Positions 1 through 63,380 of a stretch of DNA of 64,000 nt are shown piece after piece (the stretch's first letter is position 1; the number at the start of each line of letters is the position of its first letter). A program made the translations under genes and the position numbers. The DNA is taken from assembly GCA_018060845.1 (NCBI GenBank), contig JAGOVG010000001.1, forward strand, positions 152,740 through 216,739, written 5' to 3'. The DNA comes from Candidatus Woesebacteria bacterium. GTDB taxonomy: Bacteria; Patescibacteriota; Microgenomatia; UBA1400; UBA12108. The notes beneath the pieces are model-generated. The model was not told where the DNA came from. It made no database searches and was given only the letters and a program-made list of their open reading frames with translations.

Positions 1-197
1 TTCTTCGGTTAGATTGGTAAACTCGGCAAACGGGTTGCTCACCGAATCTTCGCTATTTAGGTCGAGGGTGGTAGTAGTAGATGGCTGGCGTGAAGAGATG
101 ATAAGGATAATAAGCAGAATGGCAGCTGAGATGCTAACTGCAGTTAGGAGGAATTTGTTGGCAAAAAGCCTTTGGGTTAGTTGATTGATCATAATGT
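1..197 (-). CDS. Hypothetical membrane-anchored protein, N-terminal fragment; the gene continues beyond the window
   Basis: Minus-strand reading from an ATG at about 197 gives MINQLTQRLFANKFLLTAVSISAAILLIILII..., an N-terminal TM helix. It is open to the window edge. Confidence 0.3.
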
Positions 198-264
198 TTT
201 TATCCCACTTCGCCATAAGGCTTCGTTAGGGATGAGGTACTATTATATTTCTTAATATCGAACC

Positions 265-3135
265 TCAAAACCCTGGTAATTTGAGTATATCAGCAGCAAT
301 GAGGCGAAGGAGTGAGACAGAGAAGATGACTAGAAGTAGTCCGGCTATTCCGGCTGAGAAAAGGTCGCGACCGGACTGTATGGCTTTTGCATCACCAGAG
401 CTTGTCATGAGACGGAAGACGCCAGTTAGCATAACAGAGAGTGAGATGGCACCTGAGATACCTATAAGGAACTGCAGGAGCGCAGTAACAAATGGCTGGT
501 AAGTGTAGGGGAGACAGCCAAGCGCTGTTGCAAGACTACCCTCACCACAGGTGATGGGTCGGAAAGCAGCTAGACCAGTGCCTGGAGTCCCGGTGGTAGG
601 AGTAGTGGGGGAGCTAGCGGGATTTGTGCTCGGCGAGGCTGCTGGAGATCTAGTTTTGAGATATTCATGAACAACAAGCGCTGTTGGGAACACGCCCGGT
701 CGTTGACCGTAGGGTTTTGGAGGGATACAGGGTGTAAAGTCACCACAGTACAACAAATACATACTTTGATGCGTCCCGTCGACCATGTTCATGGCATATG
801 GATCATCTTCGCCCTGGAACTTTCTAGGACAGCCACCATAAGGGATGGTCCCACCAGGAAAGCCGATTTGGCAGTTGCTGTTACCACCACCATTAAAGTT
901 GCTGATTGCGGTTATTAGCTCTGGAGTTGTATCTATTGTGTGACGCAAGAGCCCGTTGGCCGCTGATCTAACTGTCGCCTCGAAGCCGCCCTGTTCACCG
1001 ACTGGGCCACCGTTGGCCGCAGAGCATTTTTCGGGGTTTCCTGTCGCAGTAAAGCAGGTTGTTGCTTCTTCAAAATGATGACCTGCTAGGACTTCGCAGG
1101 GGACACCCGTTTCTTCGGATATTTTGGCGTAGGCCTCTTCGAGTTTAGGATTAAGGATCCCACCCTCAAACATAGCTGAGTTTTGAATAATACTAGTTAC
1201 ATTACTTGGCGCAGTCTTCCAATCAGAGTCAGCGAGGATAGCTTCGAATTTGTCGGGTAGACACTGGCCAGTGGTACTGGTCCCAGGAGCACCCACAGTC
1301 CTGTCGCAGCCTATTCTAGTGCCGAGCGCATACTCTTCGACAGAGGTATCTAATTGACTAGAGAACATTGGATCTGCACAGGTATAGTACCCAAAGCGAC
1401 GTCTAGCGTCGGCAGGGTTCATGGATTTGCCAGCATATAAGAGCTCTGCTTCATCATCGACCGTACTACTTAAGTCTTCGTTAAAATCCTGGACACTTTC
1501 GAGATTTGCTAGGGTGTCCCTAGTATCGTAGTAACCTTTTTGGAGTTCGCTGATTGACTGACCCATCGCTTCTGGAACAGTGTAGAGGTGATATTTAACC
1601 TGCTCAACTTCGTCGATTTTGTCACCGCCACCCCAGCCAGTAAATGCTAATTGGAGGAACCATGAAAGATTGAGTTCGGGGTAGGCTCCGCCCTTATCTT
1701 TGGTAAGAGTGGGTTGGAGCTTGTAGTTAGGACACTCGCCGTTTGGCCCTAGCTTCATGTCATCTTCGAGGTAGTCGATCCACTGAGTAAAATATTTCCA
1801 GCTAGACCAAGGGATATATTTGAGACAACCATCCTTGAGTTCGCCGTAGAGCTTTTCGTGGATAAAACTGGGAATCCCAAACTCACTACTAACACTGGCA
1901 AAGCGAGCGAGAGGATTGACCGCCACAATGTTTTTGTAAATCCGCATAGCGTCACTAAGTGGATAGGTCATAAAGAGCTGGTCTAGGGCTGCATTAAATG
2001 ATTGTGAGATAGAGGTGTCGTAGAATAAGCCGCGCCGTATACCTACCAACATTTCATCTGGTACCCAACACTTGTCGGGATTTTTGGGACAACATACATT
2101 CCAGACACAAATAGTAGGCCTGATGTACCCCTGACGAAAAGAGGGGGGATAGAGTGGGGCAGACATTAGGTTAATAAACCATTCGTCTGGCTGCACTTTA
2201 CCGGCTTCTTTGTTGATCACATTACAGATCGCTTGTTGTGTTTCGCCCAGTCCTTCGAGGAGTGCGTAGTTGCCAGGATTAATATACATATCATCTAGCA
2301 TCTCAAGCATTCCAAAAGTTGGGGCAGCCACCGCGTCTGGGAGCTCATCGGAGATCTCGAGGAGGGTCTTGGTACCTACAGTTGGAGTGTCGGGATCTAG
2401 GTCGTGATCAATGCCGACTTGGTAGCCCCAGTCTACCCATCCTAGTGGCCACTCGCCGGTCTGTGCGAGAGTTGATTTGGTTTGCTTGGCGCGTTTGACG
2501 ACTATCACTTTGCGCAGAGCGACATCACAAAAACTAGAGTTGAGATATTGCGATCCCCAAGAGATATCATTACTTGTTCCTACATTAGTAAACGCAAGTG
2601 CTTCGCTTTGCAGTTTTGGGTAGGTTGGCTTTTCAGCTGAGAAATCGGTGCCTTTGACAGTACGGCTAATACTGGGTCTTTTTTTGTAACTACATTTACC
2701 CTTGGTGACCCCACCCAGATCAGGGTTGGCTTTGGCAGTACAGCTATCGTTTGGATCAGATGTCGCATCTTTGACATATTCGCCACTGTCGCGGTTGCAG
2801 AGACCTACTGTTCCACCCTCACACCCATCGACTAATTCTTCTGTTTGGTTGTCGACTGCACAGACATAATCGCGCTCATCACCACCTGGACAGAGCATGA
2901 GATTTTCGTATTCGCGACTACGATCACGGTTTTCGTATATTTTTAAAAAAGGAGCTCGGATGTATTTGTAGAGCGGAAAAAAAATCTCAAAGTGATACTC
3001 TTCATCAGGATTGCCCTCGACTGAAAAGGGGGCAAACGGTTCTGTTGATTCGGCACGAGCTGGAGCAATGGATAATGAGGAGTGAGCAAGGAGTAGAGCT
3101 AAGAGCGAAGTTGTGATAAGGCGCAGCAATCTCAT
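265..3135 (-). CDS. Large secreted Cys-rich protein (956 aa) with a C-terminal VirB2/TrbC-like pilin domain; putative adhesin-pilin fusion
   Basis: N-terminal signal peptide (MRLLRLITTSLLALLLAHSSLSIAPARA). About 850 aa of Cys-rich extracellular sequence. A Pro/Thr linker (PSTNPASSPTTPTTGTPGTG). The C-terminal 110 aa (ITCGEGSLATALGCLPY...TSSGDAKAIQSGRDLFSAGIAGLLLVIFSV) match the two-TM pilin core of the downstream paralogs. Confidence 0.7.
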   Translation of the reverse strand: MRLLRLITTSLLALLLAHSSLSIAPARAESTEPFAPFSVEGNPDEEYHFEIFFPLYKYIRAPFLKIYENRDRSREYENLMLCPGGDERDYVCAVDNQTEELVDGCEGGTVGLCNRDSGEYVKDATSDPNDSCTAKANPDLGGVTKGKCSYKKRPSISRTVKGTDFSAEKPTYPKLQSEALAFTNVGTSNDISWGSQYLNSSFCDVALRKVIVVKRAKQTKSTLAQTGEWPLGWVDWGYQVGIDHDLDPDTPTVGTKTLLEISDELPDAVAAPTFGMLEMLDDMYINPGNYALLEGLGETQQAICNVINKEAGKVQPDEWFINLMSAPLYPPSFRQGYIRPTICVWNVCCPKNPDKCWVPDEMLVGIRRGLFYDTSISQSFNAALDQLFMTYPLSDAMRIYKNIVAVNPLARFASVSSEFGIPSFIHEKLYGELKDGCLKYIPWSSWKYFTQWIDYLEDDMKLGPNGECPNYKLQPTLTKDKGGAYPELNLSWFLQLAFTGWGGGDKIDEVEQVKYHLYTVPEAMGQSISELQKGYYDTRDTLANLESVQDFNEDLSSTVDDEAELLYAGKSMNPADARRRFGYYTCADPMFSSQLDTSVEEYALGTRIGCDRTVGAPGTSTTGQCLPDKFEAILADSDWKTAPSNVTSIIQNSAMFEGGILNPKLEEAYAKISEETGVPCEVLAGHHFEEATTCFTATGNPEKCSAANGGPVGEQGGFEATVRSAANGLLRHTIDTTPELITAISNFNGGGNSNCQIGFPGGTIPYGGCPRKFQGEDDPYAMNMVDGTHQSMYLLYCGDFTPCIPPKPYGQRPGVFPTALVVHEYLKTRSPAASPSTNPASSPTTPTTGTPGTGLAAFRPITCGEGSLATALGCLPYTYQPFVTALLQFLIGISGAISLSVMLTGVFRLMTSSGDAKAIQSGRDLFSAGIAGLLLVIFSVSLLRLIAADILKLPGF

Positions 3136-3137
3136 GA

Positions 3138-3419
3138 TCAGAAGCCAAAGTTGAATTGAGTAACTGGTGCACCAGTGAGATTTTCGATTAAGAGTAAGAT
3201 CAGCCAGGAGACAATGGCAAGGACCAGGCCACCAACCGCATAGCCAACAGTTTGTTTGCCACCCTGCAACCCCTTAGGGTCTCCACCACTGGTTAAGATC
3301 TTAAAACCACCAACTAAGATCATGATAAAAGCTACCATGCCAATTAGTGGGATCATGGCGGATAGAACGTTGCCAAAGTAATCTGGTAGTTGGTCGAGGC
3401 GTGCGGCGTCTGAGTCCAT
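3138..3419 (-). CDS. Pilin-like small membrane protein (VirB2/TrbC-like, two TM)
   Basis: 93 aa. TM1 (LIGMVAFIMILVGGFKILTSGGDPKG), polar loop, TM2 (VGGLVLAIVSWLILLLIENL). It sits 2 nt upstream of the 956-aa gene, so the two are probably an operon. Confidence 0.6.
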   Translation of the reverse strand: MDSDAARLDQLPDYFGNVLSAMIPLIGMVAFIMILVGGFKILTSGGDPKGLQGGKQTVGYAVGGLVLAIVSWLILLLIENLTGAPVTQFNFGF

Positions 3420-3439
3420 GTCTGTAATTATAGTACAAA

Positions 3440-3470
3440 AACCCCGCTTACGCGGGGTTTATTGCAATGT
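3440..3470 (-). terminator. Rho-independent terminator (the hairpin is bidirectional) after the pilin gene 3486..3833
   Basis: Plus strand reads aaaaaCCCCGCttacGCGGGGtttatt. On the minus strand the stem CCCCGC/GCGGGG is followed by TTTTT. Confidence 0.6.
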
Positions 3471-3485
3471 TTGTAACAAAAAGTC

Positions 3486-3833
3486 TTAGTAAGCAGTTGG
3501 AGGCGTAATGTTGTCGTTGAGGATGCTGATACCAAAGAAGTATTGGATGATCAACATGACCGCCCAAGCAGAGGCTACGACTGCGAGACCAACTAGAGCT
3601 GCAGTGATGCGATCACGAGCTTCTTGGGTTTTGCCTTTGTCACCACCTGATGTAATCCATTGGATGCCACCCCAGATTAGATACATGAAGACGAGGAGAG
3701 CAGAAACGAGTAGTGCTCCCTGGACTGCACCCTTGATGAGAGTACCAATATTGGTGATTGCGACGTTGTCTGGCTTGCCAATTGAGAGGTCTGGAGCTGC
3801 TGGAGCTGCTAAGACTTTGGAAATTTCGAACAT
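3486..3833 (-). CDS. Pilin-like protein (VirB2/TrbC-like), paralog 1 of the array
   Basis: Conserved core YLIWGGIQWITSGGDKGKTQEARDRITAALVGLAVVASAWAV. Start moved to MFEISK because a strong RBS, AAAGGAGAAcatATG, sits just upstream. It has its own terminator. Confidence 0.7.
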   Translation of the reverse strand: MFEISKVLAAPAAPDLSIGKPDNVAITNIGTLIKGAVQGALLVSALLVFMYLIWGGIQWITSGGDKGKTQEARDRITAALVGLAVVASAWAVMLIIQYFFGISILNDNITPPTAY

Positions 3834-3891
3834 ATGTTCTCCTTTTATTACTTTATGATCTAAGTGTATCAATTATAGCAGGATTAGCAAG

Positions 3892-4266
3892 TTATTTGGT
3901 AATGCCAATCCCAAAGAAGTAGTCGACTAGTAAGTAGACGGCCCAAGCCGAGGCTACGATAGCTAGGCCAACTATAGCCTGGGTAATTTTGTTTCTAGCT
4001 TCTTCCAACTTTCCTTTGTCACCACCGGCCGTGATCCAGTTGATACCTCCGTAGACTAGGTACATAAAAGTGGCGAGCCCAGCTACTAGAATGACGGCCG
4101 AGAAGCTGCGGGAGACAAAAGTGCCAAGATCTTCGTTGATTGCCACGCGAGATTTGACTTGGTCATCCACATTGATGGCAAAGCTACCACCGGCGGCGAG
4201 TGCTACGGGCGTACTAGTTAAAAGTAGAAAGGTAAAAGTTGAAAGTCGGGTGAGTATTTTTTTCAT
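3892..4266 (-). CDS. Pilin-like protein (VirB2/TrbC-like), paralog 2
   Basis: Signal-peptide-like N-terminus, then YLVYGGINWITAGGDKGKLEEARNKITQAIVGLAIVASAWAV. Confidence 0.7.
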   Translation of the reverse strand: MKKILTRLSTFTFLLLTSTPVALAAGGSFAINVDDQVKSRVAINEDLGTFVSRSFSAVILVAGLATFMYLVYGGINWITAGGDKGKLEEARNKITQAIVGLAIVASAWAVYLLVDYFFGIGITK

Positions 4267-4304
4267 ATGTGGTCATTCCCGCCAATGCGGGACTTCGCTT
4301 ACGC

Positions 4305-4661
4305 TCAGCCTGCAGTGGGCCAGATAATGTTTAAGAGATCGACTCCGAGCGCTGATTCGATAAATTTGATTATGACGTAGCTTGCCGCGAGAACTGCAAG
4401 TCCAACTAAACCCTGAGTAATTTTGGCTCGACTCTCGTCAAGTTTTCCTTTGTCACCACCAGCCATAATCCAGTTGAGTCCACCCCAGAGGAAGTAAAGT
4501 AGAAAGGCGAGACCGCCTACGATAATGATGGTTTGCCAGAGCGTGGCCATGGTAATAGCAAATTGTTGAGGAGCACTATCAGGAGAGTCGCCCCCTGGCA
4601 CGGCTGTATTAGTTATCGCTGCGTGTACTTGAGTGACAAGTTGAAAGTTTGTAAAGTTCAT
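4305..4661 (-). CDS. Pilin-like protein, paralog 3
   Basis: FLWGGLNWIMAGGDKGKLDESRAKITQGLVGLAVLAASYVI. Variable N- and C-terminal tails. Confidence 0.7.
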   Translation of the reverse strand: MNFTNFQLVTQVHAAITNTAVPGGDSPDSAPQQFAITMATLWQTIIIVGGLAFLLYFLWGGLNWIMAGGDKGKLDESRAKITQGLVGLAVLAASYVIIKFIESALGVDLLNIIWPTAG

Positions 4662-4665
4662 AAAA

Positions 4666-5028
4666 TTAATTGAAGGTGATCCCCTGAATAATACTACCTG
4701 GTTCGAGGATGTTTAGACCTAGGGCAGAGCCCACGATCCAGACAATGGAGTAGGAGAGGACGATAATGATCAAACCTATGGCGCCACCCGTCATCATGCC
4801 CTTGGCTTTGTCGATCTTACCTTTGTCACCACCGGCCGTGATCCAGTTGAGGCCGCCAAGGAGGAAATAGAGGACAAAAGCAATGCCAGCAACTACGGTT
4901 AGCACAACTAGAGTATTGCTGATTAGTTTTTCAAAGGCACTAGTACTGCCCTCGATGCCACTACCAGGTTGGTATCCACCAGGAGTAGTAATCTGACTAA
5001 AGCTAGTGTCTGCCAAGATTTTTGACAT
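4666..5028 (-). CDS. Pilin-like protein, paralog 4
   Basis: FLLGGLNWITAGGDKGKIDKAKGMMTGGAIGLIIIVLSYSIV. Confidence 0.7.
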   Translation of the reverse strand: MSKILADTSFSQITTPGGYQPGSGIEGSTSAFEKLISNTLVVLTVVAGIAFVLYFLLGGLNWITAGGDKGKIDKAKGMMTGGAIGLIIIVLSYSIVWIVGSALGLNILEPGSIIQGITFN

Positions 5029-5031
5029 AAA

Positions 5032-5367
5032 TTAAAAACTCCCTGGTCCAGTAATGGTAGGAGATAAGATAGCTCCTGCATCGCCAAATAGGACAAAGGA
5101 GACAATGCCGGTAATCGCTGCTGCGCCTACCATGATGATTAAACCGAGGAGAGACATGTTGATTGAGTACATAGCAGCCTGGATCTTTTTCTCGTCCCCT
5201 CCGGCCGTGACGTAAGTAAAGCCAGAGATCATGAGATTAAAGAATGCGTACAATCCCGCTGCAACAAAAATAACGGTCACAATATTAGTGATAAAACTTG
5301 GTAACCCAGTGTTGACATCACCGTAGTTGGTTACTGGATTGTCGATGTTACCAAAGACGCTTGCCAT
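5032..5367 (-). CDS. Pilin-like protein, paralog 5 (diverged)
   Basis: Same two-TM topology. The motif is degenerated to TYVTAGGDEKKIQAAMYSINMSLLGLIIMVG. Confidence 0.6.
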   Translation of the reverse strand: MASVFGNIDNPVTNYGDVNTGLPSFITNIVTVIFVAAGLYAFFNLMISGFTYVTAGGDEKKIQAAMYSINMSLLGLIIMVGAAAITGIVSFVLFGDAGAILSPTITGPGSF

Positions 5368-5371
5368 AGAT

Positions 5372-5719
5372 TTATAGAATCTCTAGTCCGGTGACGATCT
5401 GAATAATCTGAATTATCCAGTACGAACCGAAGACTACTAATAGGCCCATTATAGCAAAAGTAATAGTTTTTTTGCCCTCTTCCATCTTGTGACTATCGCT
5501 GGCGCCACTTATCACATTAAATCCGCCGAGTACAAACATAAAAAAGAGCACTAGCCCTGCTGCGACATAGACGTTCGGGAGGATGGCGTTGATTAAGTCG
5601 CTCGCACTACCGTAGGTCGAGTCTGCGCTACTACCCTGGAAAATAAGCTTGTCACCTAAGTTAAATCCTGCCATGCCATTTATTATACCCTTTGGAGTAG
5701 AATATGGCACATGGAACAA
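5372..5719 (-). CDS. Pilin-like protein, paralog 6 (diverged)
   Basis: Two TM around the motif ISGASDSHKMEEGKKTITFAIMGLLVVFGSYWII. The real start may be the internal MAGFNLG at 5674, because 5711-5719 overlaps the divergent sigma gene. Confidence 0.55.
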   Translation of the reverse strand: MFHVPYSTPKGIINGMAGFNLGDKLIFQGSSADSTYGSASDLINAILPNVYVAAGLVLFFMFVLGGFNVISGASDSHKMEEGKKTITFAIMGLLVVFGSYWIIQIIQIVTGLEIL

Positions 5720-6250
5720 GTGATAAAGGAGATATTAAAAGGAAAAAAGGGTGCAGCAACTGTATTTTACCGAGAGTACTCACCTAAACTAAGGCGATTT
5801 TTGGTGGCTAAACTCCCGAGCGAAGCAGATGCGGAGGAGCTACTCCAAGACATATTTTTGTCTGTGTTTGACTCTCTGCCGATCTACCGGGGGGAGTGTA
5901 GCGTTATGTCATGGATTTACTCGATAGCACGACATGAGGTGGCCGACTTTTATCGCAAGCGCTACGTTCGAGAGCTGGTAGAGAAGACCAATCCTTTGTT
6001 TGAAGAGTTGATGGAGACGGTTGAGACCCCAGAAAAGGTTTTGGATAAAACTAAAAAGCGTGCTCAGTTTTTTGCGGTGTACAAAGGTCTTAATCAATCA
6101 TACCAAGATATACTGTCATACCGCTACGAATTATCTTTGTCAGTAAAAGAGATAGCGGCAAAAATGAAACTCACATTTAAGGCAACAGAGTCATTACTTT
6201 ATCGGGCGAGGACAGCTTTTGCCCTAGCTTACGAAACATATGCAGAGTGA
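5711..6250 (+). CDS. ECF-type RNA polymerase sigma factor (sigma-70 regions 2 and 4)
   Basis: Region 2-like DIFLSVFDSLPIYRGECSVMSWIYSIARHEVADFYRKR. Region 4-like LSYRYELSLSVKEIAAKMKLTFKATESLLYRARTAF. Divergent from the pilin array. Confidence 0.8.
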   Translation: MEQVIKEILKGKKGAATVFYREYSPKLRRFLVAKLPSEADAEELLQDIFLSVFDSLPIYRGECSVMSWIYSIARHEVADFYRKRYVRELVEKTNPLFEELMETVETPEKVLDKTKKRAQFFAVYKGLNQSYQDILSYRYELSLSVKEIAAKMKLTFKATESLLYRARTAFALAYETYAE

Positions 6251-10716: not shown

Positions 10717-11028
10717 TTACCCGACGATGTCGATCTTGAAGATAATCTGGAGGAGCTGGGCGATCCAGAAGGCTAGAAAGATAACGGCAAACCCAAATAG
10801 CGCACTAGTAATAGTTTTTTTACCTTTTTCTTGAGCTTCTTTGTCTGCCGCACCAGCGAGCATAGTAAAGCCACCTGAGACGAGCATGCCAAAGAGGATA
10901 ATCCCTGCGAGTGTTAGTAGGGTGGGGAGGATGGAGCTAATGATACTACCCACGTTACTAGTATCTACCTGGCCACCACCGAGGCCGATGGCATTCTCGT
11001 AGGCGTCGTAGTCTGCAAAATCTGCCAT
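10717..11028 (-). CDS. Pilin-like protein (VirB2/TrbC-like), second locus
   Basis: Two TM around GGFTMLAGAADKEAQEKGKKTITSALFGFAVIFLAFWI. Confidence 0.6.
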   Translation of the reverse strand: MADFADYDAYENAIGLGGGQVDTSNVGSIISSILPTLLTLAGIILFGMLVSGGFTMLAGAADKEAQEKGKKTITSALFGFAVIFLAFWIAQLLQIIFKIDIVG

Positions 11029-11036
11029 ATAATCCT

Positions 11037-11453
11037 TTAATTAAATCCTGGTAATTGAATGATATCACCTGCAATGATGCGCAGTAGTGTTACAGAGAAG
11101 ATGATAAACAGAAGTCCGGTTACGGCACTGGTAAAGAGCTCTTTACCTTTTTTGACTGCTTCAGCATTGTCGCCACCAGTCATGATCTGGACTGTTGCAA
11201 TGAGCATAATAACCAAAGAGATGGCTCCTGCCGTACCAGCAAGAAACGTAAGAAGGGAGACAGTGAAACCTTTAGTATCTACGCTTAAGCATCCTAGCGC
11301 CGTGTCGATTGCTGTATCACCGCAGCTGCCATTGGGATCGATCGCCTTGACTTGATTGGTCGAAAGTAGAAAGTAGAGGGTAGAGAGGAAGGGAGCAACT
11401 AGTCTTTGTGATAGGATGGATATATGTTTTCTGTCTGGAAAAAGCTTTTTCAT
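11037..11453 (-). CDS. Secreted Cys-motif protein with a C-terminal pilin-like domain; short homolog of the 956-aa protein's C-terminus
   Basis: NGSCGDTAIDTALGCLSV...ISLVIMLIATVQIMTGGDNAEAVKKGKELFTSAVTGLLFIIFSVTLLRIIAGDIIQLPGFN. Compare ITCGEGSLATALGCLPY...LKLPGF in the 956-aa protein. Confidence 0.6.
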   Translation of the reverse strand: MKKLFPDRKHISILSQRLVAPFLSTLYFLLSTNQVKAIDPNGSCGDTAIDTALGCLSVDTKGFTVSLLTFLAGTAGAISLVIMLIATVQIMTGGDNAEAVKKGKELFTSAVTGLLFIIFSVTLLRIIAGDIIQLPGFN

Positions 11454-13124
11454 AGCATAGTAATTGTACTGCTTCTTATCCTGACAATTGTATCACACCA
11501 GACAGCGCACGCTGAGACTCTGGAGGAGATAGAGAAGCAGCTAGCGGACCTTTCTAATCAGCTCCAGCTATCACAAGCAGCAACCACTCCACTCGAAGCC
11601 GAGGTCTCCAAGCTGCTTAAGCAGATTGGGACTATCCAGAGTCAGATCAAAGACTACGAGAGTAAAATCAAGGATTTAAGTCTAGATATTGATGAGAGGG
11701 AAGTAAAAATTAAGACCCAATATGTAGTATTGGGAGCAAAGGTTAGGGACTACTACAAAAAATCCAGGTTTTATTCCCCTCTACTGACACTACTATCCTC
11801 ACAAAGTGCGGGCGAGCTAACACGCGAACTTACGTATGCTGAGGCGACAGCGGATGAAGATAAAGAGATGATTGTCTCGATTACCAAAGAGATTATTGCT
11901 CTAGAGGATGATAAGACAAAGCTTGAATCTGACAAAGTCAGATTAGCTTCCTTACAAAAGAAGGTTGATGGTCAAAAAGCATTTTTTGAGAAAGAAATCG
12001 CGGGTGCTAAGAAGTGGCAACAAGAGCTCTCTGGCAAAATAGCGACTTTGACAGCCAAACAACAATCAATCCTTTCGGAGAAATCGGGGACATTTCAGAC
12101 TACGGTTGGAGACGTGCCTCTCGCAGATGACAAAGCATCAAGACCAGACTACAACCCAGGATTTTCACCAGCGTTTGCCGCATTTTCATTTGGAGCGCCG
12201 CACTTTAAAGGCATGAGTCAATACGGGGCATATGGCCGGGCCAAACAAGGACAGAGTTACGAGACTATATTGAAAGCTTATTATGGCAACGGTATCGAGA
12301 TTAGAGACCATAACCCAGACGCGCAGATAGTGGTCGAGGGATATGGGAGCTTTAGTTTGGAAGAATATGTAAAAAGAATCTATGAGATGCCGGGTTCATG
12401 GGGAGATGAGGGTGGGATGGAGGCACTTAAAGCGCAGGCGATAGCTGCACGCAGCTACGCACTAGCACGCGGTGGGACTATATGTGCTACTGAGGCATGT
12501 CAGGTATTTAAACCGAGTCCGAAAGGTGGGAGGTGGGAAGAAGCCGTAAATGCGACTAGAGGTAAGGTGGTATATGCAAACGGCAGTCCTTTTTCGACTT
12601 GGTATGCATCTACATCAGGAGGATACCAACTCAGCTACTCAGCTAACGGGCACTCAACTCCAGGATTTTGGGATACGCCATCAGGACAAGCTGGCTGGAC
12701 TGGCCAAGCATATGAAAAAGTGGCTGGCTCACCCTGGTTCTACAAAGCTTGGTATAAAACAAGATCAGGTGATTCGTGCGATAGATCACATCCATGGCTC
12801 AACTCCGAAGAAATGGCCGACATCTTAAACTCTTGGGTAGTTTTATTTAATGGAGGAGGGGATGCGGGGCGAGTGACCCCAGAGTCATCTTGTTGGGGAG
12901 GTAGCCCGTATAACCGAGCGGAACTCAGAGACATAGGTGGGTATAGTAGTGTCAGTGGAGTTAGCGTGAGCTACGGCAATAATGGTGTAACCGCGAACAT
13001 TACTTTTCAGACCAACAAAGGCAGCACTACTATCGCGGCAGCAGACTTTAAGAAGGCCTTTAATTTGCGAGCACCTGGTCGAATATCGATAAAGTCAAAC
13101 CTGTTTAATATTGAGAAAAAGTAG
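11424..13124 (+). CDS. SpoIID/LytB-domain protein with signal peptide and N-terminal coiled coil
   Basis: Signal peptide ending AHA. Coiled-coil-like 40-230. GMSQYGAYGRAKQGQSYETILKAYY and AQAIAARSYA match the SpoIID family. Confidence 0.7.
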   Translation: MFSVWKKLFHSIVIVLLLILTIVSHQTAHAETLEEIEKQLADLSNQLQLSQAATTPLEAEVSKLLKQIGTIQSQIKDYESKIKDLSLDIDEREVKIKTQYVVLGAKVRDYYKKSRFYSPLLTLLSSQSAGELTRELTYAEATADEDKEMIVSITKEIIALEDDKTKLESDKVRLASLQKKVDGQKAFFEKEIAGAKKWQQELSGKIATLTAKQQSILSEKSGTFQTTVGDVPLADDKASRPDYNPGFSPAFAAFSFGAPHFKGMSQYGAYGRAKQGQSYETILKAYYGNGIEIRDHNPDAQIVVEGYGSFSLEEYVKRIYEMPGSWGDEGGMEALKAQAIAARSYALARGGTICATEACQVFKPSPKGGRWEEAVNATRGKVVYANGSPFSTWYASTSGGYQLSYSANGHSTPGFWDTPSGQAGWTGQAYEKVAGSPWFYKAWYKTRSGDSCDRSHPWLNSEEMADILNSWVVLFNGGGDAGRVTPESSCWGGSPYNRAELRDIGGYSSVSGVSVSYGNNGVTANITFQTNKGSTTIAAADFKKAFNLRAPGRISIKSNLFNIEKK

Positions 13125-16756: not shown

Positions 16757-17339
16757 TAGTGTAATTATAGCCCCACTCCGCATAAAGCTTCGCTAGGGAC
16801 ACACTTCGCCTGACATATAGAATCATGTTCCATGAATTAGTTTTGTGTGTGGCCGTGCCACTGCGTAGCTCCGTAGGAGCGAAGTGTGGAGACGGAGGGC
16901 AGTGAGCCCTCGTCCGGAGCGAGTTTTTAACACCATCTACATACATAGATAAATTTATTTTTTAACCTCTCAACTATTAGGTATTTATCAGACCAAGATA
17001 GTTTTGAGGGTAGTCGTTTATATGGCCACGCCTGACTAGGGCGGGGTTATGGCTCATGTTTGTTTCCACCTACACCATTGCCATGAGCGACTCGGGTGTA
17101 AATGTCCTGGTTAAGCTCTATTACCCGCGAGGGTGTAGTTACCAAACAAGGAAGCAATAGCGCGATCTGCACTCTCTAAGAGAGAAACAAATTTACTATA
17201 TGCTGTCTGTGCAGTTTTAGTGACAGATATTTTTTGACGCTGTTTTACGACTTCTCTCGTCAAAGTCGGTATGCAGATGTTAAAGAACTGTCGCCTCGTC
17301 AAAGCAAGACGTCCCCAATAGGCTGTATTATAGCATAGT

Positions 17340-57395: not shown

Positions 57396-57581
57396 GATTT
57401 TGATCTAGAAGCGCTAGATTGACCAACAACTCTCGAAGTTCTAGAGTGAATGTAGGTTTAACAATTTAACGAGATATTGGATAAGGAAGTAGGGTGAAAT
57501 ACCCTCACTGTGCCGCAACGGTTAAAGTCCGGAACTTGCCAATATTCTCGCCTTATTACGCATCCTCCGCGCGAGAGGATG

Positions 57582-58889
57582 AAGGAGAGTTTTGTGGGTA
57601 GATTTTTAGAAGTATTTGATCATCAAGTTGGCGTTGAAACATTTAAGATTTCGAACGCTGATGGAACTCTCGCTGCGACTGAGTCAAACTTGCATCTTTG
57701 GTATAGCCAGGTAGCAAATAGAGATACTAAGGATGTTAATAGGTTTGGTGAGAATAAAGGCGAGAGCGAAAAGATGTTTTCCTTATGGTTGTATTACTGG
57801 ATGATAGACCACGAAAGTTTGGCAACAAATGATTTAGAGAGCAGGCTATATATTGACGGAATGACATATCTAGCAGAGAGAGTATTCGAGTTGCCTTACA
57901 ACGAACTTAAACTACATTTTACTGATGAAGAAATATATGGAGTTGGGTTTGGAGACAAAGGAGTACTGAATATCTGTCGAGACGGAGTTGACTTAAGGAG
58001 AGCAGAGCAGGAGTCTACTAATAGAGTAATGCATGAAGGATTAGGGATGTGGAACTTAGTACAACTCTTGCAGACACTTAAGGTTGGTGAAAGTGCAATG
58101 TTGATTAGTCCTCCTGATCCCGACGATCCCAATATGGGCGGGTACAACTTGATTTATTTGTACGAGAAAACTAGCGAAAATAATCTAAGAATGGGGGTTA
58201 TTACAGATAATGTGAATGACATTGAATACTGGAGAAATAATGCCAGTACTTTTTCAAGATACAGAAACGACTTTAGTCAATATGATCACAATCAATTTGT
58301 AGCACACCCATTTATTACGAAGCAGAGTTTAGTTGAAATAAAGTCGACTATTTTACATACGGATGATAAATATGTGCCTGATTGGGCGCTCGAGAAATTA
58401 CGCAAAGTCATCCCCTCAGTAAGAAAAGCTCTCTATGAAGGAAATGTAAAGCGGGCAGAAGAGCTTTTTAACGCGTTCAAAATAGCTACTACTGCCAAAC
58501 TTCTCAATAAAGATAAAGATGTAAACATGGAAAGACTTGTCGACGATATTGAGTATTTCATGGTCATCTCAGGATGGTATATCCATAATGGAGGTGATAA
58601 ATATATAAACAAAAAGACAGGATGTAGCTTAGATAGAATTAACCTGGGAGATCGAGACCTATTTAATAACCAATGGGATAGATACACTAAGTTTGACATG
58701 AATTCGGTTGGAACGGATAAACCTGAGGACGAGACATATAGTTTTGACATAAGGGGAAAATGTGTAGGTAGTTGTTTTGATGAGGTTTTAGAAGATGGAA
58801 CCAAGGTTAAACACGAAAGAGATCTCGGTCCATGTCACCTATGTAGAGAGTGTGATGCAGAGGCGAAGAAGAACTCCCAGACTAGCTAA
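57582..58889 (+). CDS. Hypothetical protein (about 435 aa)
   Basis: Long ORF. Start uncertain (57510 or the ATG at 57582, which sits inside a hairpin). C-terminal Cys cluster CHLCRECD. Confidence 0.4.
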   Translation, partial: KESFVGRFLEVFDHQVGVETFKISNADGTLAATESNLHLWYSQVANRDTKDVNRFGENKGESEKMFSLWLYYWMIDHESLATNDLESRLYIDGMTYLAERVFELPYNELKLHFTDEEIYGVGFGDKGVLNICRDGVDLRRAEQESTNRVMHEGLGMWNLVQLLQTLKVGESAMLISPPDPDDPNMGGYNLIYLYEKTSENNLRMGVITDNVNDIEYWRNNASTFSRYRNDFSQYDHNQFVAHPFITKQSLVEIKSTILHTDDKYVPDWALEKLRKVIPSVRKALYEGNVKRAEELFNAFKIATTAKLLNKDKDVNMERLVDDIEYFMVISGWYIHNGGDKYINKKTGCSLDRINLGDRDLFNNQWDRYTKFDMNSVGTDKPEDETYSFDIRGKCVGSCFDEVLEDGTKVKHERDLGPCHLCRECDAEAKKNSQTS

Positions 58890-59004
58890 AGTAATTGCCC
58901 CTATTTGATACAGTCATTGCTAGTTGACGACCCCTGCCAGTAGGGGGTACGGTAGATAGGCCCTACTATATGTAGGGTTTTGGTTCTAAAAGGAGCTACC
59001 AGAT

Positions 59005-59463
59005 ATGCAATGTCCATACTGCCATCACGAGGATACTTCCGTCCTCGAGTCGCGTATCACAGCCGAAGGTGGTGCGATGAGGCGCAGACGTGAGTGTGTT
59101 AAGTGTAGTAAGCGTTTTACCACCTACGAGCGAGCTGAGGGAGTAGATATTAGAGTGGTCAAAAAGACAGGCAAGGTAGAGGACTTTGATAGAGAGAAGC
59201 TAAAAAGAGGGGTGATGAAGGCTACCTGGAAACGTCCAGTCTCTATGGAGCAGATCGAGGCAATGGTTGACGAGATAGAAAGGATCCTTAGGCGTAAGAC
59301 TACAACTGAAGTTAGGAGTTGGGAGGTAGGTAATCTTGTGATCAATAGATTAAAAAAGATTGATCCACTGGCATATTTACTATTTGCTAGTGTGTACAGA
59401 GAATTTGAGAACTTGTCTGATTTTGAAGAAGAAATTAAAAAACTAAAGGAACCTGCCCAATGA
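59005..59463 (+). CDS. nrdR: Transcriptional repressor NrdR (zinc ribbon plus ATP cone)
   Basis: MQCPYCHHEDTSVLESR...RRRECVKCSKRFTTYE. Confidence 0.85.
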   Translation: MQCPYCHHEDTSVLESRITAEGGAMRRRRECVKCSKRFTTYERAEGVDIRVVKKTGKVEDFDREKLKRGVMKATWKRPVSMEQIEAMVDEIERILRRKTTTEVRSWEVGNLVINRLKKIDPLAYLLFASVYREFENLSDFEEEIKKLKEPAQ

Positions 59464-61481
59464 AAATCACCAAACTGAACAAAAATGCTGCTGCTATTAT
59501 GGTAAATCGCTATAGCTTGAGGGATGACTCAGGGCACCCTGTTGAGTCACCTGCAGAGATTTTGATGCGTACTGCTAGAGTAGTCGCAGAAGCCGAGAAC
59601 AACTACAGAAGCAGTGGTGACACCTCGATGGAAGTGAGAGAAAAGTTTTTTGAGATGTTATACGAGATGAGGTTTGTGCCAAATGGTCGTACTATGGCTA
59701 ACGCAGGGACTAAGTATGGCCAGCTAGCAAACTGTTTTGTATTGCCGGTTGAAGATGATCTAGGCAAAGGAACTGACTCGATATTTTCTGTGCTTCGCAA
59801 GGCTATCCTAACACTGCAAACTGGCGGGGGAGTAGGTTTTTCTTTTGGGCGGATAAGGCCGAAAGAGGCATCAATTAGCACAACCAAAGGTAAAGCAACT
59901 GGAGCTGTATCTTTTATCAAGGTGTATGACACAGCTTTTTGGGTAATCGGCCAAGGTGGGGGTAGGCGTAGTGCGGCTATGGCTGTCCTACCTGTATGGC
60001 ATCCAGACATTTACGAATTTGTGAGATGTAAAGCGACAGAGGGACAGATTACCAACTTTAATATCTCAGTTGGGATAACAGATGAGTTTATGACGGCAGT
60101 TGCCAAGGATGAGGATTTTTCACTGCGCCACCCTGAAAATGGAGAACTATATCGAATGGTTCCGGCACGAGAATTATTTGCGGAGATTGTAAAGTTTGCT
60201 CATAAAAATGGCGAACCAGGTGTACTGTTTCTTGATGCTGCCAATAGAAGTAATCCTGTTCCACATCTATACAAACTCGAGGCAACAAACCCATGTGGAG
60301 AACAGTTCTTGGGTCCATACGAAAACTGCTGTTTGGGGAGTTTGAATCTTAGAGAACATGTAAAGTTAGCAAAAAATGATAAGTTAAAAGTTAAAAGTTA
60401 TATTGTGGATTGGGAAAAGTTAGCAGAGACGGTGGAATTATCGGTTAGATTTTTGGACAATGTGGTCGATGCTAATAAATATGTCTCGGCAGTACCAGAG
60501 CTCGAAGAAGCTGCCCACAAAGTGCGCCGCATTGGTTTGTCTGTGATGGGGTTATCAGACATGATGTATATGACCAATGTTCGATATGGTTGTGATAAAG
60601 GCCAGGAGCTGGCATCACAACTCATGGAGTTTATACGCTACCACTCGATGAGAGCTTCGATAGAACTCGCTCGGGTTAGAGGACCATTCCCTGGTATAAA
60701 CGGCAGTATTTACGATCCACAAAAAGTAACCTGGACAGTACCAAAGCCAAGAGTCGTTCATAAATCTGACTTTGGAAGACCAGAACTAGATTGGAAACTA
60801 ATTACAAAAGGATTAAAGTCTAACGGGATTCGAAATGGGGCTCAGACTACAGTTGCTCCAACCGGAAGCATTGCCACTATATCAGGACTTGAGGGGTATG
60901 GATGTGAGCCAGTATTTGCATTATCTTATATCCGCCACACGAGAGAGGGTGCAGAAAAAGAAGGCAAAGAATGGCGTGAAATGTACTACGAGAGTAGTCT
61001 TTTTGAATCTGCGATGAAGCGAGAGGGCATGAGTAAAAGCCAGAGGAACCAACTGTTTGCCGAAGTAAGAGACAATGGAGGGAGTTTGAAGGGAATAAAA
61101 GGTGTACCCAAACAGATTGCTGACACTTATGTAGTGTCATCTGACCTTAGTGTCGAAGAACACGTCCGGATGCAGGCCGTGATGCAGGCATGGATTGATA
61201 ACTCGATCAGTAAGACCATTAACTTCCCCAGTACTGCGACAGTTGACGAAGTGGCAGAGGCTTATCAACTAGGCTGGAAGCTGGGACTTAAGGGCATGAC
61301 AGTCTATGTAGAGGGGTCAAGAGAGCAGGTAGTACTAGAGAAGAAGAGTGCTCCATTTGAAACAAAAGAAGACAAGCAAGTAACATCTGAGGAGCTGTGT
61401 CCAGAATGTGGAACACCCATGCGGAGAGAAGAGGGGTGTTCTACTTGCCCTAGTTGTGCGTACTCTAAATGTGATAAATAG
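59460..61481 (+). CDS. nrdJ: Class II (adenosylcobalamin-dependent) ribonucleotide reductase, paralog a (no ATP cone)
   Basis: [44 protein letters not shown] and a C-terminal CPECG...CSTCPSC zinc ribbon. Confidence 0.8.
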
Positions 61482-61490
61482 GACATTTAT

Positions 61491-63380
61491 ATGACAAAAC
61501 CAAAAATAATTGAACCAAAACTGACGAAAAATGCGCAAGAAGTAGCTAAGAAGCGTTATTTGCGGACAGATATGAATGGAGTTGTTGTTGAGACTCCGGG
61601 AGAAATGTTGTGGCGAGTAGCCTATCACATGGCCAAACCAGAAGTTGCCTGGGGGACTAATGGCATAGTGATGGAGACAGCCGCTCGGTTTTATGAGCGA
61701 ATGGCGTCTCTCAAGATGGTATGTGCTGGCAAGGCAATGTTTGAGGCGGGGAACCCTGGGGGGACCGGACAATTATCTTCTTGTTTTGTGTTGCCAATAG
61801 AGGATTCGATCGGCAAGATTTTTAAGACTTTGGGTGATGCGGCGGTTGTACATAAAAATAACGGGGGTACTGGCTTTAACTTTAGCAAAATTAGGCCACA
61901 CGGGGATAAGGTAAAGAACGTGCCGGGTGCATCATCGGGACCGGTTGATTTTATCAAGGCGTACTCGGCAGCACTGGCTCAGATTTTGCAGGGCGCAAAA
62001 AGACAGGGCGCCAACATCGCAATTTTAAATGCGAACCACCCGGACATAGAGGAGTTTATTGATCTAAAAGCACAGGACGGGACGATTAAAAACTTTAATG
62101 TGTCGGTGGGTGTAACTGACTCATTTATGGAGGCAGTGGAAGGTGACAAATATTGGAATTTGGTAAACCCAAGAAATGGAGAGGTAGTTAAGAAAATTAA
62201 GGCAAAAACACTATTTAATAAGATTGCAGAAGCTGCGTGGAGGACGGGCGACCCAGGTCTTATGTTCTTGGACAATACAGAGCGTGGCAACACTGTTCCT
62301 AATTTTGGCAAACTAGATGCCACTAATCCGTGTGGGGAGATTGCACTGTTTCCTTATGAATCATGTAACTTAACTAGTATTGATTTGGCGAGACACCTTA
62401 AGAAGAGTAAGAAGGGGTATGAGATAGACTACAAAGAGCTTGGTGAGACAGTGCGACTAGGGGTTAGATTCCTCGACAACATGATAGAAGTGAATGCGTA
62501 CCCAGTCTCTGAGATTGAGGCAACGGTTAAAAATGGTAATCGGAGGATTGGACTAGGTGTCATGGGATTTGCGCATGTACTGTACAGGATGGGGATTCCT
62601 TACAACAGTAGCGACGCAGTAAAACTAGCCAAGGAAATGTCCAAATTTATATACGAGACTGCAGCTGAAATGTCATCTGAGCTAGCTGAAGTGAGAGGAA
62701 ACTTTAACAACTGGGATCTCTCAATCTACCCTGCAAAAGGACAGCCGATGCGCAACTGCGCGGTGACGATGATTGCGCCTACTGGGACGATTTCGATCCT
62801 AGCGGACACGAGTAGTGGAATAGAGCCAGTTTTTAGTTTGGTCACGAAGCGCAGAACTTTTTATGAAGATGATAAGTCTAACCACTCAACAAAAGAGCTT
62901 CTCATGGTTGACCCTGTTTTTGAAGAATATATTGGAAAGAGAAAAGATATTCTAGAACAAGTAGCAAATGGAGATTACTCAGGACTAACTCCTTTGGAGC
63001 GAAAGTTGTTTGTCACTACACACCAGATAGAACCCGAGTGGCATGTGAAGATACAAGCGGCGTGGCAGAAGTATTTTGATAACTCGATTAGCAAGACAGT
63101 TAATTTTGGACACGAGGCGAAGGTTGAAGATGTTAAGACTGTATATATGCAGGCATGGAAGCTGGGATGTAAGGGTGTCACGATTTATCGAGACGGGAGT
63201 AAGGGAGATCAAGTTTTGAGTACTGTAAAATCGGACAACCAGAATACTCAGAGTGTCGGTGACTCAGAACAATCTGAGAGCCAAAGTGAAGAGTTGGTAT
63301 GTCCTGAGTGTGGTGGGAAGCTACACAAACAAGATGGCTGCTCAAAGTGTATTGATTGTGGATATAGCGTATGCGGATAA
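61491..63380 (+). CDS. nrdJ: Class II ribonucleotide reductase, paralog b (no ATP cone)
   Basis: SSCFVLPIEDS, NPCGEIALFPYESCNLTSIDL and a C-terminal CPECGG...CSKCIDC. Its linker carries CGGACAACC repeat copy D. Confidence 0.8.
   Translation: MTKPKIIEPKLTKNAQEVAKKRYLRTDMNGVVVETPGEMLWRVAYHMAKPEVAWGTNGIVMETAARFYERMASLKMVCAGKAMFEAGNPGGTGQLSSCFVLPIEDSIGKIFKTLGDAAVVHKNNGGTGFNFSKIRPHGDKVKNVPGASSGPVDFIKAYSAALAQILQGAKRQGANIAILNANHPDIEEFIDLKAQDGTIKNFNVSVGVTDSFMEAVEGDKYWNLVNPRNGEVVKKIKAKTLFNKIAEAAWRTGDPGLMFLDNTERGNTVPNFGKLDATNPCGEIALFPYESCNLTSIDLARHLKKSKKGYEIDYKELGETVRLGVRFLDNMIEVNAYPVSEIEATVKNGNRRIGLGVMGFAHVLYRMGIPYNSSDAVKLAKEMSKFIYETAAEMSSELAEVRGNFNNWDLSIYPAKGQPMRNCAVTMIAPTGTISILADTSSGIEPVFSLVTKRRTFYEDDKSNHSTKELLMVDPVFEEYIGKRKDILEQVANGDYSGLTPLERKLFVTTHQIEPEWHVKIQAAWQKYFDNSISKTVNFGHEAKVEDVKTVYMQAWKLGCKGVTIYRDGSKGDQVLSTVKSDNQNTQSVGDSEQSESQSEELVCPECGGKLHKQDGCSKCIDCGYSVCG
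63231..63290. repeat. CGGACAACC-family repeat, copy D, in-frame inside nrdJ paralog b
   Basis: tcggacaaccagaatactcagagtgtcggtgactcagaacaatctgagagcc, encoding SDNQNTQSVGDSEQSES. Confidence 0.6.

Follow-up and report, generated by a model that had tools for sequence, protein, structure and literature searches.

We analyzed a 64,000-nucleotide (nt) stretch of the genome of a Candidatus Woesebacteria bacterium (assembly GCA_018060845.1, contig JAGOVG010000001.1, positions 152,740 to 216,739; hereafter the window, whose own coordinates are used unless another locus is named). In the open reading frame (ORF) listing and the minus-strand sequence of the window, seven adjacent co-oriented genes, which we call pil1 to pil7, occupy positions 3138-5674 and are followed by the gene of a secreted protein of 956 amino acids (aa), the giant. 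We consider it probable that the seven products are PF18895 subunits of a chromosomal, origin-proximal type IV secretion system (T4SS) of the kind found in Patescibacteria, and that they constitute non-redundant parts of one assembly. An original prediction, made from the sequence of the window alone, had placed seven consecutive minus-strand genes for two-helix proteins at this site, and all of them were found. The same prediction ascribed the diversification of the paralogs to antigenic or host-range variation of a surface filament; this explanation was not borne out by the comparison of genomes, which carries the present reading.

Conservation of the array between genomes

The loci of five homologs of the giant, which are 40-79% identical to that of the window (loci L005-L009), were compared with the window. 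The layout is the same in all five: a divergent sigma-factor gene, seven pilin genes, the giant gene and the same downstream genes (one pilin of L008 was left out of the gene calls and is present in the sequence). In 35 of 35 cross-genome comparisons the best match of a pilin was the window pilin at the same array position, with 57-97% identity versus 28-46% for the runner-up paralog. Ortholog identities are 57-95% for pil1, 66-84% for pil2, 70-85% for pil3, 72-86% for pil4, 67-93% for pil5, 81-97% for pil6, which is the most conserved, and 63-94% for pil7. The pilins are better conserved than the giant and than the 186-aa protein encoded after it (36-71%), and about as well as UppS, an amino-acid kinase and the sigma factor. 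The Nei-Gojobori ratios of nonsynonymous to synonymous divergence (dN/dS) are 0.02-0.09 for the pilins, the same as for these three genes; since dS is saturated in many gene pairs (pS >0.75), several ratios are undefined and the rest are to be read as upper-bound-like estimates. The dN values of the pilins (0.03-0.15) are below those of the giant (0.16-0.28), and in two near relatives whose giants are 92-93% identical to that of the window the pilins are 88-100% identical.

The protein tails, which the original prediction described as hypervariable, do differ between paralogs but are conserved between genomes. Within orthogroups the N-terminal tails are 55-85% and the C-terminal tails 61-90% identical, whereas the identity between paralogs of a single genome is no more than 19-46%, and no alignment of their tails with each other is possible. 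The order of the genes was followed further in a scan of one genome per species, which gave 80 loci from Woesebacteria, Gottesmanbacteria, Collierbacteria, Beckwithbacteria, Chisholmbacteria and others, with pilin ORFs classed by hidden Markov models (HMMs) of the orthogroups. The 1-to-7 order is kept in 55 of the 65 arrays that are uncut by contig ends, and 27 arrays read exactly 1-2-3-4-5-6-7. No trace of recent duplication, silent cassettes or gene conversion was seen in the compared arrays. By the position-specific 1:1 orthology, the low dN/dS, the conserved tails and the fixed order, the seven pilins are old subfunctionalised paralogs, each with its own 1:1 ortholog, that are held in a fixed order under strong purifying selection.

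In their public records, many contigs on which this Microgenomatia-type locus lies bear the title 'uncultured Pseudomonadales bacterium' or 'uncultured Gammaproteobacteria bacterium' (L016, L018-L021, L058, L061 and others), one is titled Bathyarchaeia and one Omnitrophota. Contigs with such titles are probably mislabelled or mis-binned metagenome-assembled genomes.

Protein architecture, family and predicted fold

Each of the seven proteins contains two hydrophobic segments of 19 residues (Kyte-Doolittle mean 1.9-2.7), and pil5 has a third one at residues 13-31. By charge counts, the loop between the helices has 2-4 Lys/Arg, and both tails are either neutral or acidic; from this charge pattern, the positive-inside rule predicts that the loop is cytoplasmic and that both tails face outward. 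The tails so exposed would comprise 17-40 residues at the N-terminus and 9-21 at the C-terminus, and they are conserved. The loop motif, which was originally proposed to be common to all seven, has a near-identical strict core, GGxxWI(T/M)(A/S)GGDKGK, in exactly four proteins, pil3-pil6, and is degenerate in pil1 (ISGASDSHK), pil7 (LTSGGDPKG) and pil2 (Table 1).

The original prediction suggested a comparison of each paralog with pilin-family profiles. The Pfam family PF18895 (T4SS_pilin, gathering cut-off 26.6 bits) is the top match for all seven proteins, and five of them exceed the cut-off: pil7 with 33.3, pil6 with 34.6-35, pil5 with 36.4, pil3 with 30.5 and pil1 with 32.2 bits, the last score being taken on the longer translation from TTG 5719. 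The scores of pil4 (18.5) and pil2 (23.3) lie under the cut-off and are still the best or only matches of these proteins. The PF18895 matches of the array are far beyond chance. At E <= 10 the family is also found in every one of the 43 sequences of the pil6 alignment, with a best value of 5.7e-11. On these profile matches, pil1-pil7 are members of the Patescibacteria T4SS_pilin family. A window-wide HMM, built from pil6 relatives and the simple pilins of the window and run over all 407 window ORFs, found exactly 10 proteins, eight of which (the array and a 103-aa protein of a second locus) match by construction. The two that were not used in training are the C-terminus of the giant (E 2.6e-8), which is the tenth pilin-domain copy in the window, and a 138-aa protein (E 2.3e-6).

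The AlphaFold2 model of pil6, made from the 43-sequence alignment, is a hairpin of helices 29-61 and 66-100 with a predicted local distance difference test score (pLDDT) >95 in the core and flexible tails. In pil3-pil6 a conserved A-x-A boundary is preceded by a short stretch that is variable (13-40% identity), and in some genomes the orthologs of pil4 and pil5 have a complete signal peptide ahead of an unchanged mature start (AITNTAVPGG in pil4), which suggests that the variable stretch is a cleaved leader.

Of the named families, the closest to the pilins is the 'Mbov_0395 family pilin-like conjugal transfer protein' (NCBIfam NF045849) of a Mycoplasma integrative and conjugative element (ICE). 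Nine of the ten pilin-domain proteins match this model with E values of 4e-7 to 0.03 and 14-30 bits, all under its curated cut-off of 40, so we treat the relation as a lead and not as membership. The TrbC/VirB2 model PF04956 gave 12 weak matches among the 43 pil6 relatives (best E 0.005), and unrelated membrane families match them at least as well. A tblastn search of pil6 against 72,556 plasmids found no match, and no PHROGs family, holins included, matched the pilin proteins at E <= 0.01. A type IV pilin of the type IV pilus or type II secretion class was also considered and rejected: the proteins have no class III signal peptide and no G|F(M)xxxE site, and their two hydrophobic helices are internal.

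Gene layout and expression signals

The coordinates of the features are collected in Table 1. The original prediction placed the array downstream of the giant gene; on the coding strand the order is the reverse, and a 2-nt gap separates the pil7 stop codon (3140-3138) from the ATG of the giant at 3135. For pil1 the ATG is that of the NCBI gene call, and the alternative TTG at 5719 would run into the divergent sigma-factor gene. The 128-aa form of pil6 that would start at TTG 3872 is less likely than the form starting at ATG 3833 behind AAAGGAG. With the better-supported starts the array proteins measure 93-124 aa, so that the lower end of the predicted size range (93-128 aa) stands and the upper end does not.

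Table 1. Features of the array, of the second pilin locus and of their surroundings (window coordinates)
Feature	Position	Strand	Description
pil1	5372..5674	(-)	100 aa from ATG 5674; first gene in array
pil2	5032..5367	(-)	111 aa; loop motif degenerate, VTAGGDEKK
pil3	4666..5028	(-)	120 aa; core GGLNWITAGGDKGK
pil4	4305..4661	(-)	118 aa; core GGLNWIMAGGDKGK; short degenerate leader ending VHA|AITNT
pil5	3892..4266	(-)	124 aa; classical signal peptide ..VALA|AGGSF
pil6	3486..3833	(-)	115 aa; core GGIQWITSGGDKGK; candidate major subunit
pil7	3138..3419	(-)	93 aa
Giant gene	265..3135	(-)	956-aa secreted protein, 3' of pil7
5' part of next operon gene	1..216	(-)	186-aa bitopic protein; locus continues past window
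ECF-type sigma-70 factor	5711..6250	(+)	179 aa, divergent from pil1
Eighth simple pilin	10717..11028	(-)	103 aa, second small locus
Cys-loop/hairpin/LPGF protein	11037..11453	(-)	138 aa, signal peptide
Intrinsic terminator after pil6	3434..3466	(-)	stem CCCCGC 3457-3452 / GCGGGG 3447-3442, U-run 3441-3437
Promoter-like site before pil1	5682..5710	(-)	GTGCCA-17-TATAAT, 10/12 positions matched; consensus match only

The conservation of expression signals was followed in six genomes, the window and its five relatives. The spacers within pil1-pil5 are mostly 0-6 nt (4 nt between pil1 and pil2 in the window), about 60 nt precede pil6, and 45-223 nt follow it. The ribosome-binding site (RBS) of pil6, AAAGGAG at 3845-3839, stands 5 nt from the ATG, with a TATAAT at 3877-3872, and an AGGAG Shine-Dalgarno sequence is found 5-8 nt before pil6 in all six genomes. 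The terminator of pil6 is a CCCCGC/GCGGGG hairpin followed by U5 with a folding energy of -20.6 kcal/mol (z = -4.05; none of 200 shuffles is as stable). It was found by RNA folding and had been missed by a terminator pattern scan, probably through over-extension of the stem into the U-run. The lowest synonymous divergence belongs to pil1, pil6, pil7 and the 103-aa pilin. A strong and conserved RBS, a terminator of its own in this genome, the highest conservation and low synonymous divergence make pil6 the best candidate for a major subunit, the role in which the original prediction had already cast it. The long spacer between pil6 and pil7 in L007 (9511-9702) and L008 (9478-9702) measures 190-223 nt and folds at -60 and -79 kcal/mol, respectively; an Rfam search of this structured spacer in L008 returned no family.

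A TATAAT lies before pil1 at 5687-5682 and before pil7 at 3432-3427, in both cases 7 nt from the ATG, and a TATAAT or TATACT box, recognized by match to the consensus only, stands 7-10 nt before the ATGs of these two genes in all six genomes (7-8 nt in the case of pil1). No convincing Shine-Dalgarno sequence precedes pil1 or pil7 in this genome, where pil1 has a weak AAGGG about 9 nt upstream. This arrangement suggests that the pil1 and pil7 mRNAs are leaderless. The spacer between pil7 and the giant gene is -4 to +2 nt in all six genomes, and pil7 is apparently translationally coupled to the giant gene.

The protein encoded divergently from pil1 contains Sigma70_r2 and Sigma70_r4_2 domains and matches TIGR02937 with 74.7 bits (cut-off 42.9). 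The gene for this extracytoplasmic function (ECF) sigma factor is present in 57 of the 80 related loci, where it lies upstream of the array and with few exceptions on the other strand. In the window, its start codon directly adjoins the promoter-like site of the array. The sigma factor is a candidate for a dedicated regulator of the array.

The giant protein and the second pilin locus

The giant begins with a signal peptide (..APARA|E), which is followed by a Cys-rich ectodomain of ~600 residues, many of its cysteines being invariant, and then by an all-alpha, lysozyme-like module of ~200 residues, a Pro/Thr/Ser linker and a pilin-like hairpin. In the AlphaFold2 model (mean pLDDT 74.8) the fold of the module, residues ~625-830 (window ~646-1263, minus strand), matches lysozyme and lytic transglycosylases. 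Two motifs of the giant are invariant, ETGVPCE(V/I)LAG..., which contains E681, and S(R/N)(Y/F)NGGGN(S/A)NCQ; E681 would fit the catalytic Glu, and the second motif would fit the third motif of SLT-like enzymes. No SLT or lysozyme Pfam model matches the giant, Pfam searches with its thirds were also empty, and PDB sequence searches were without useful result, both for the whole protein and for its lysozyme-like module.

A profile of the giant found 10,654 matches among 1.84 billion representative proteins. Among the 150 best matches listed, most of those that are not full-length relatives cover only profile positions ~595-800, and a further set, proteins of 111-260 aa, aligns with the anchor alone (positions 820-934). 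The lysozyme-like module, for which there is no Pfam model, is also fused to Peptidase_M23 and GH5, and by these matches, which run to thousands of clusters of representative proteins, it is widespread. We regard the giant as a pilin-anchored putative wall hydrolase, a description that draws on its predicted structure. The same profile search turned up a protein of 487 aa (P0342) with three tandem T4SS_pilin domains (80 bits), i.e., pilins fused head to tail.

The C-terminus of the giant (residues 862-956) is 48% identical over 95 residues to the 138-aa protein (BLASTP E 1e-31), and the two form a second type of pilin domain, with a CGx9GC loop, a hairpin and a C-terminal LPGF. The 138-aa protein and the 103-aa pilin, which score 19.5 and 38.4 bits with PF18895, respectively, are encoded in a second small locus (10717-11453) beside a SpoIID-like gene (11424-13124, plus strand). 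This locus is kept in L005, L006 and L009. The orthologs of the 103-aa pilin are 65-90% identical, and the first gene of the locus varies in relatives, encoding 138, 184 or 265 aa. The Cys-loop/hairpin/LPGF anchor thus seems to carry different ectodomains.

The surrounding secretion locus

Beyond window position 1 the locus was read from contig JAHZTO010000034.1 (GCA_020049755.1, Candidatus Woesebacteria bacterium), which carries an identical giant protein (loci L001 and L003). Past the giant follow the genes of the 186-aa bitopic protein, a 523-aa polytopic protein, a 1328-aa protein on the opposite strand, a 948-aa CHAP protein, a 201-aa Big_5-like protein, a PrgI-like protein, a TrsD-like protein and VirB4, and then dnaN and dnaA. 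The VirB4 protein (627 aa), encoded 12 kb further on the strand of the array, matches NF045971 (CD1110 family) with 401.9 bits against a cut-off of 325 and also carries DUF87/AAA_10/P-loop_TraG; its second-best match is Mbov_0397, the model of the partner ATPase from the same Mycoplasma ICE. A search for VirB4 and VirB6 had been proposed together with the original prediction, and the continuing locus supplied both this VirB4 and a polytopic candidate for VirB6.

The candidate is the 523-aa protein (L001 13554-15125), which has a hydrophobic N-terminus and seven further hydrophobic segments and matches no family. Its gene lies downstream of the array in 59 of the 80 loci, and it may be the VirB6 that surveys call scarce in Microgenomatia. 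It evolves fast, with 54% identity in a genome where the pilins are 93-99% and the giant 92% identical. The 1328-aa protein (L001 15179-19165, minus strand), encoded antisense in the T4SS locus, has no transmembrane segment, signal peptide or family match and is only ~22-24% identical between genomes that keep its position, and the 948-aa CHAP protein (L001 19214-22060, plus strand) has 5 homologs among 5.8 billion proteins. These comparisons place the variability of the locus in the 523-aa, 1328-aa and 948-aa proteins and not in the pilins; an effector or host-specificity role is possible for the 1328-aa and 948-aa proteins.

Among the locus genes listed there is no relaxase or coupling-protein family, the search being limited to this stretch of the genome. 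The locus is an origin-proximal, relaxase-less, monoderm-type T4SS as described for Patescibacteria (PMC12102498). In an annotated sample of the larger remaining ORFs of the window none belongs to a T4SS; the sample included SpoIID, two PBP1, GH18 and two ribonucleotide reductases. A tmRNA lies at 16884-17316 (minus strand), and an AdoCbl-II riboswitch (57474-57545, plus strand) stands before a 459-aa ORF without a family match and two tandem genes for ribonucleotide reductase large subunits (57510-63380).

Comparison with known systems

Arrays of this kind have been published, and the one described here is one more example: a survey of Patescibacteria found 441 arrays, each with 2-11 genes for VirB2-like pilins, in 383 assemblies, most commonly in Microgenomatia and Saccharimonadia, with a mean paralog identity of 25% and a maximum of 54%, and placed the Patescibacteria T4SS near dnaA (Quinonero-Coronel et al. 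2025, PMC12102498). The original prediction considered the function of such proteins largely untested, which does not hold for the equivalent pilin series of Southlakia epibionticum, shown to be essential (Wang et al. 2023, PMC10633639; PMC12857230). With the Southlakia ML1 array (SEML1_0006-0019) and the surveyed arrays, the window array shares tandem divergent copies of PF18895 and a monoderm-type T4SS cluster with VirB4, TrsD and PrgI beside dnaA/dnaN, with no relaxase or coupling protein in the stretch inspected. It differs in having seven genes and a pilin-anchored 956-aa protein versus six genes in Southlakia. It differs also in what its conservation implies: the divergence of the pilins has been read as possible versatility toward hosts (PMC12102498), whereas fixed order, 1:1 orthology and purifying selection here point to non-redundant subunits. 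The published array accounts, in the parts available to us, make no mention of the coupling of pil7 to the giant, of the divergent ECF sigma factor or of the two-gene second locus.

The VirB2/TrbC/TraA pilins (PF04956) of the T-pilus and the F-pilus resemble the array proteins in being small, in having two hydrophobic helices and a short basic loop, in carrying a leader (in some of the array copies), in their VirB3- and VirB4-type neighbour genes and in a topology with the termini out and the loop in, which is predicted for the array. The differences are the absence of detectable sequence homology, a monoderm host, a locus without VirB5, VirB7, VirB9 and VirB10 partners, and seven conserved paralogs instead of one major pilin. 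Variation by paralogs has been proposed for the VirB2 copies of Bartonella and Anaplasma, and pilE/pilS-type systems belong with them among the antigenically variable pilin arrays. The Mycoplasma ICE that encodes Mbov_0395 likewise has a monoderm-type T4SS; the ICE is mobile and conjugative and its host has no cell wall, whereas the locus described here is chromosomal and origin-proximal.

The minor pilins and pseudopilins (GspH-K, PilVWX, TcpB/CofB) offer a functional analogy only: they are several conserved, non-interchangeable paralogs in a fixed order beside one abundant major subunit, and some pilin-fold proteins among them bear a large extra domain (the tip domains of TcpB/CofB). Their fold and machinery are unrelated, and the array proteins lack the class III signal peptide, the G|F site and the single N-terminal helix. 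Compared with the VirB1/PrgK/TraG hydrolases, the two activities at this locus would reside on separate proteins, the CHAP protein and the giant, and the module of the giant is anchored by a pilin-like hairpin and follows the ~600-residue Cys-rich ectodomain.

Alternative explanations

It was originally proposed that a single surface subunit exists in several alternative, diversified forms, the paralogs, which provide antigenic or host-range variation of a filament. The divergence of the paralogs within a genome and their non-alignable tails would agree with such a role, and the same suggestion is made in the published survey of arrays (PMC12102498). Variants of a single part would, however, hardly each be matched, in all genomes compared, by a conserved 1:1 ortholog in the same array position, with dN/dS of 0.02-0.09, tails 55-90% identical within orthogroups and an order kept across Microgenomatia orders; neither recent duplications nor silent cassettes nor gene conversion were seen, and the fast-evolving genes of the locus are those of the 523-aa, 1328-aa and 948-aa proteins. 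On the present sequence evidence this explanation is strongly disfavoured, and we consider it very improbable. Still less credit can be given to the view that the array encodes holin- or bacteriocin-like membrane peptides that act with the lysozyme-like giant and have nothing to do with secretion, a version of which the original prediction had named as its own potential refutation. Small proteins with two transmembrane segments beside a protein of muralytic fold do invite such a view, but PF18895 membership, the constant linkage to VirB4, PrgI, TrsD and the replication origin, and the housekeeping-level conservation in reduced genomes speak against it, as do the lack of a PHROGs match at E <= 0.01 (bacteriocin-like peptides were not searched separately) and the essentiality of the equivalent genes within the Southlakia T4SS cluster (PMC10633639).

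A third alternative retains the T4SS and dispenses with the extracellular pilus: the seven proteins would form a membrane-embedded or wall-spanning channel or ring, which would suit a monoderm system of the MPF_FATA type. The VirB4 belongs to the CD1110 type of monoderms, relatives of which function without pili (PMC12102498), and seven fixed, stoichiometric-looking subunits resemble a part of a machine. The nearest named pilin relative, Mbov_0395, although matched below its cut-off, comes from a wall-less Mycoplasma. No Patescibacteria pilus of this kind has been seen: papers on the Patescibacteria T4SS speak only of a 'potential to elaborate' pili (PMC12857230). A channel would not, on the other hand, readily account for the conserved N- and C-terminal tails that are predicted to face outward, for the single paralog whose signals point to much stronger expression, as would fit a polymer, or for a pilin-like anchor on a large ectodomain, which fits a displayed structure. 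We regard the channel as a serious though rather unlikely possibility.

A number of observations weigh against our own reading of the array as pilin subunits of one T4SS assembly. No pilus or other assembly of such proteins has been seen in any Patescibacterium (PMC12857230). The prediction that the proteins are VirB2/TrbC-like pilins is upheld by PF18895 and by the AlphaFold2 hairpin, but not by direct comparison: PF04956 matches none of the 10 pilin-domain proteins at E <= 1, and hhalign of the pilin profile with six MPF_T VirB2/TrbC proteins from plasmids gives a probability of 0.6%. A PDB sequence search with the pilin profile returned chance matches to transmembrane helices and no pilin, and a Foldseek search of the PDB with the pil6 model found generic helical hairpins (best E 0.87) and no pilus subunit; judged by the model, the hairpin fold is generic and too simple to discriminate. 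Three of the neighbours are assigned by scores under the respective cut-offs, namely the 212-aa TrsD-like protein (E 5.7e-6, 26 bits, cut-off 200), the 340-aa PrgI/VirB3-like protein (23 bits, cut-off 27) and the C-terminal CHAP domain of the 948-aa membrane protein (E 7e-4). The split into major and minor subunits would rest on expression signals and conservation only, and the pil6 terminator, identical in L006, is common to only two of the six genomes. Finally, cleavage of the leaders, incorporation of the giant and control by the ECF sigma factor are all inferred.

A proposed model of the assembly

The seven pilins would, on the reading we prefer, be non-redundant parts of one assembly rather than alternative versions of one part. 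Short, variable leaders ending in A-x-A would be removed before the conserved mature N-terminus, and the hairpins would be inserted in the membrane with their tails out. By analogy with the VirB2 systems of Gram-negative bacteria, VirB4 together with TrsD, PrgI and the polytopic protein may then pull the hairpins from the membrane and stack them into a filament or conduit. In this structure pil6 would be the abundant subunit that forms the bulk, and pil1-pil5 and pil7 would be specialised subunits of low copy number that serve initiation, the tip or the base, much as minor pilins and pseudopilins do. The pil7 protein would be produced together with the giant, whose pilin-like hairpin may join or dock on the assembly, and the muralytic domain of the giant would open the peptidoglycan, either that of the cell itself or that of a host. 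The array would probably be controlled by the divergent ECF sigma factor.

A bolder version, which we advance only tentatively and regard as less likely to be correct than wrong, is that the surface filament or conduit is obligately heteromeric, with pil6 as the major and the other six as specialised subunits, that the disulfide-rich lytic giant, co-translated with pil7, sits at its tip or collar and breaches the wall of the host, and that the pilin-like anchor is a general device of the candidate phyla radiation (CPR) by which different ectodomains are mounted on the structure.

Concluding remarks

In this contribution, we provide evidence for a fixed heptad of pilins, a pilin-anchored lysozyme-like protein, a linked sigma factor and a VirB6 candidate, which is what the analysis adds to the published class. 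They offer targets for experiments: pil6, the pair of pil7 and the giant with its E681 module, the polytopic VirB6 candidate and the ECF sigma factor. A large fraction of uncultured bacteria belongs to the Patescibacteria, whose members live in attachment to other microbes; in the one species tested, the T4SS is essential. The fixed order, the 1:1 orthologs and the housekeeping-level constraint argue against the idea that the divergence of the pilins serves 'versatility toward hosts', and the 523-aa, 1328-aa and 948-aa proteins are likelier determinants of host specificity than the pilins. If the obligately heteromeric structure proves true, it would be the first ordered multi-pilin T4SS pilus and the first such pilus in a monoderm, and it would contain a functional replacement for VirB5 and VirB1.

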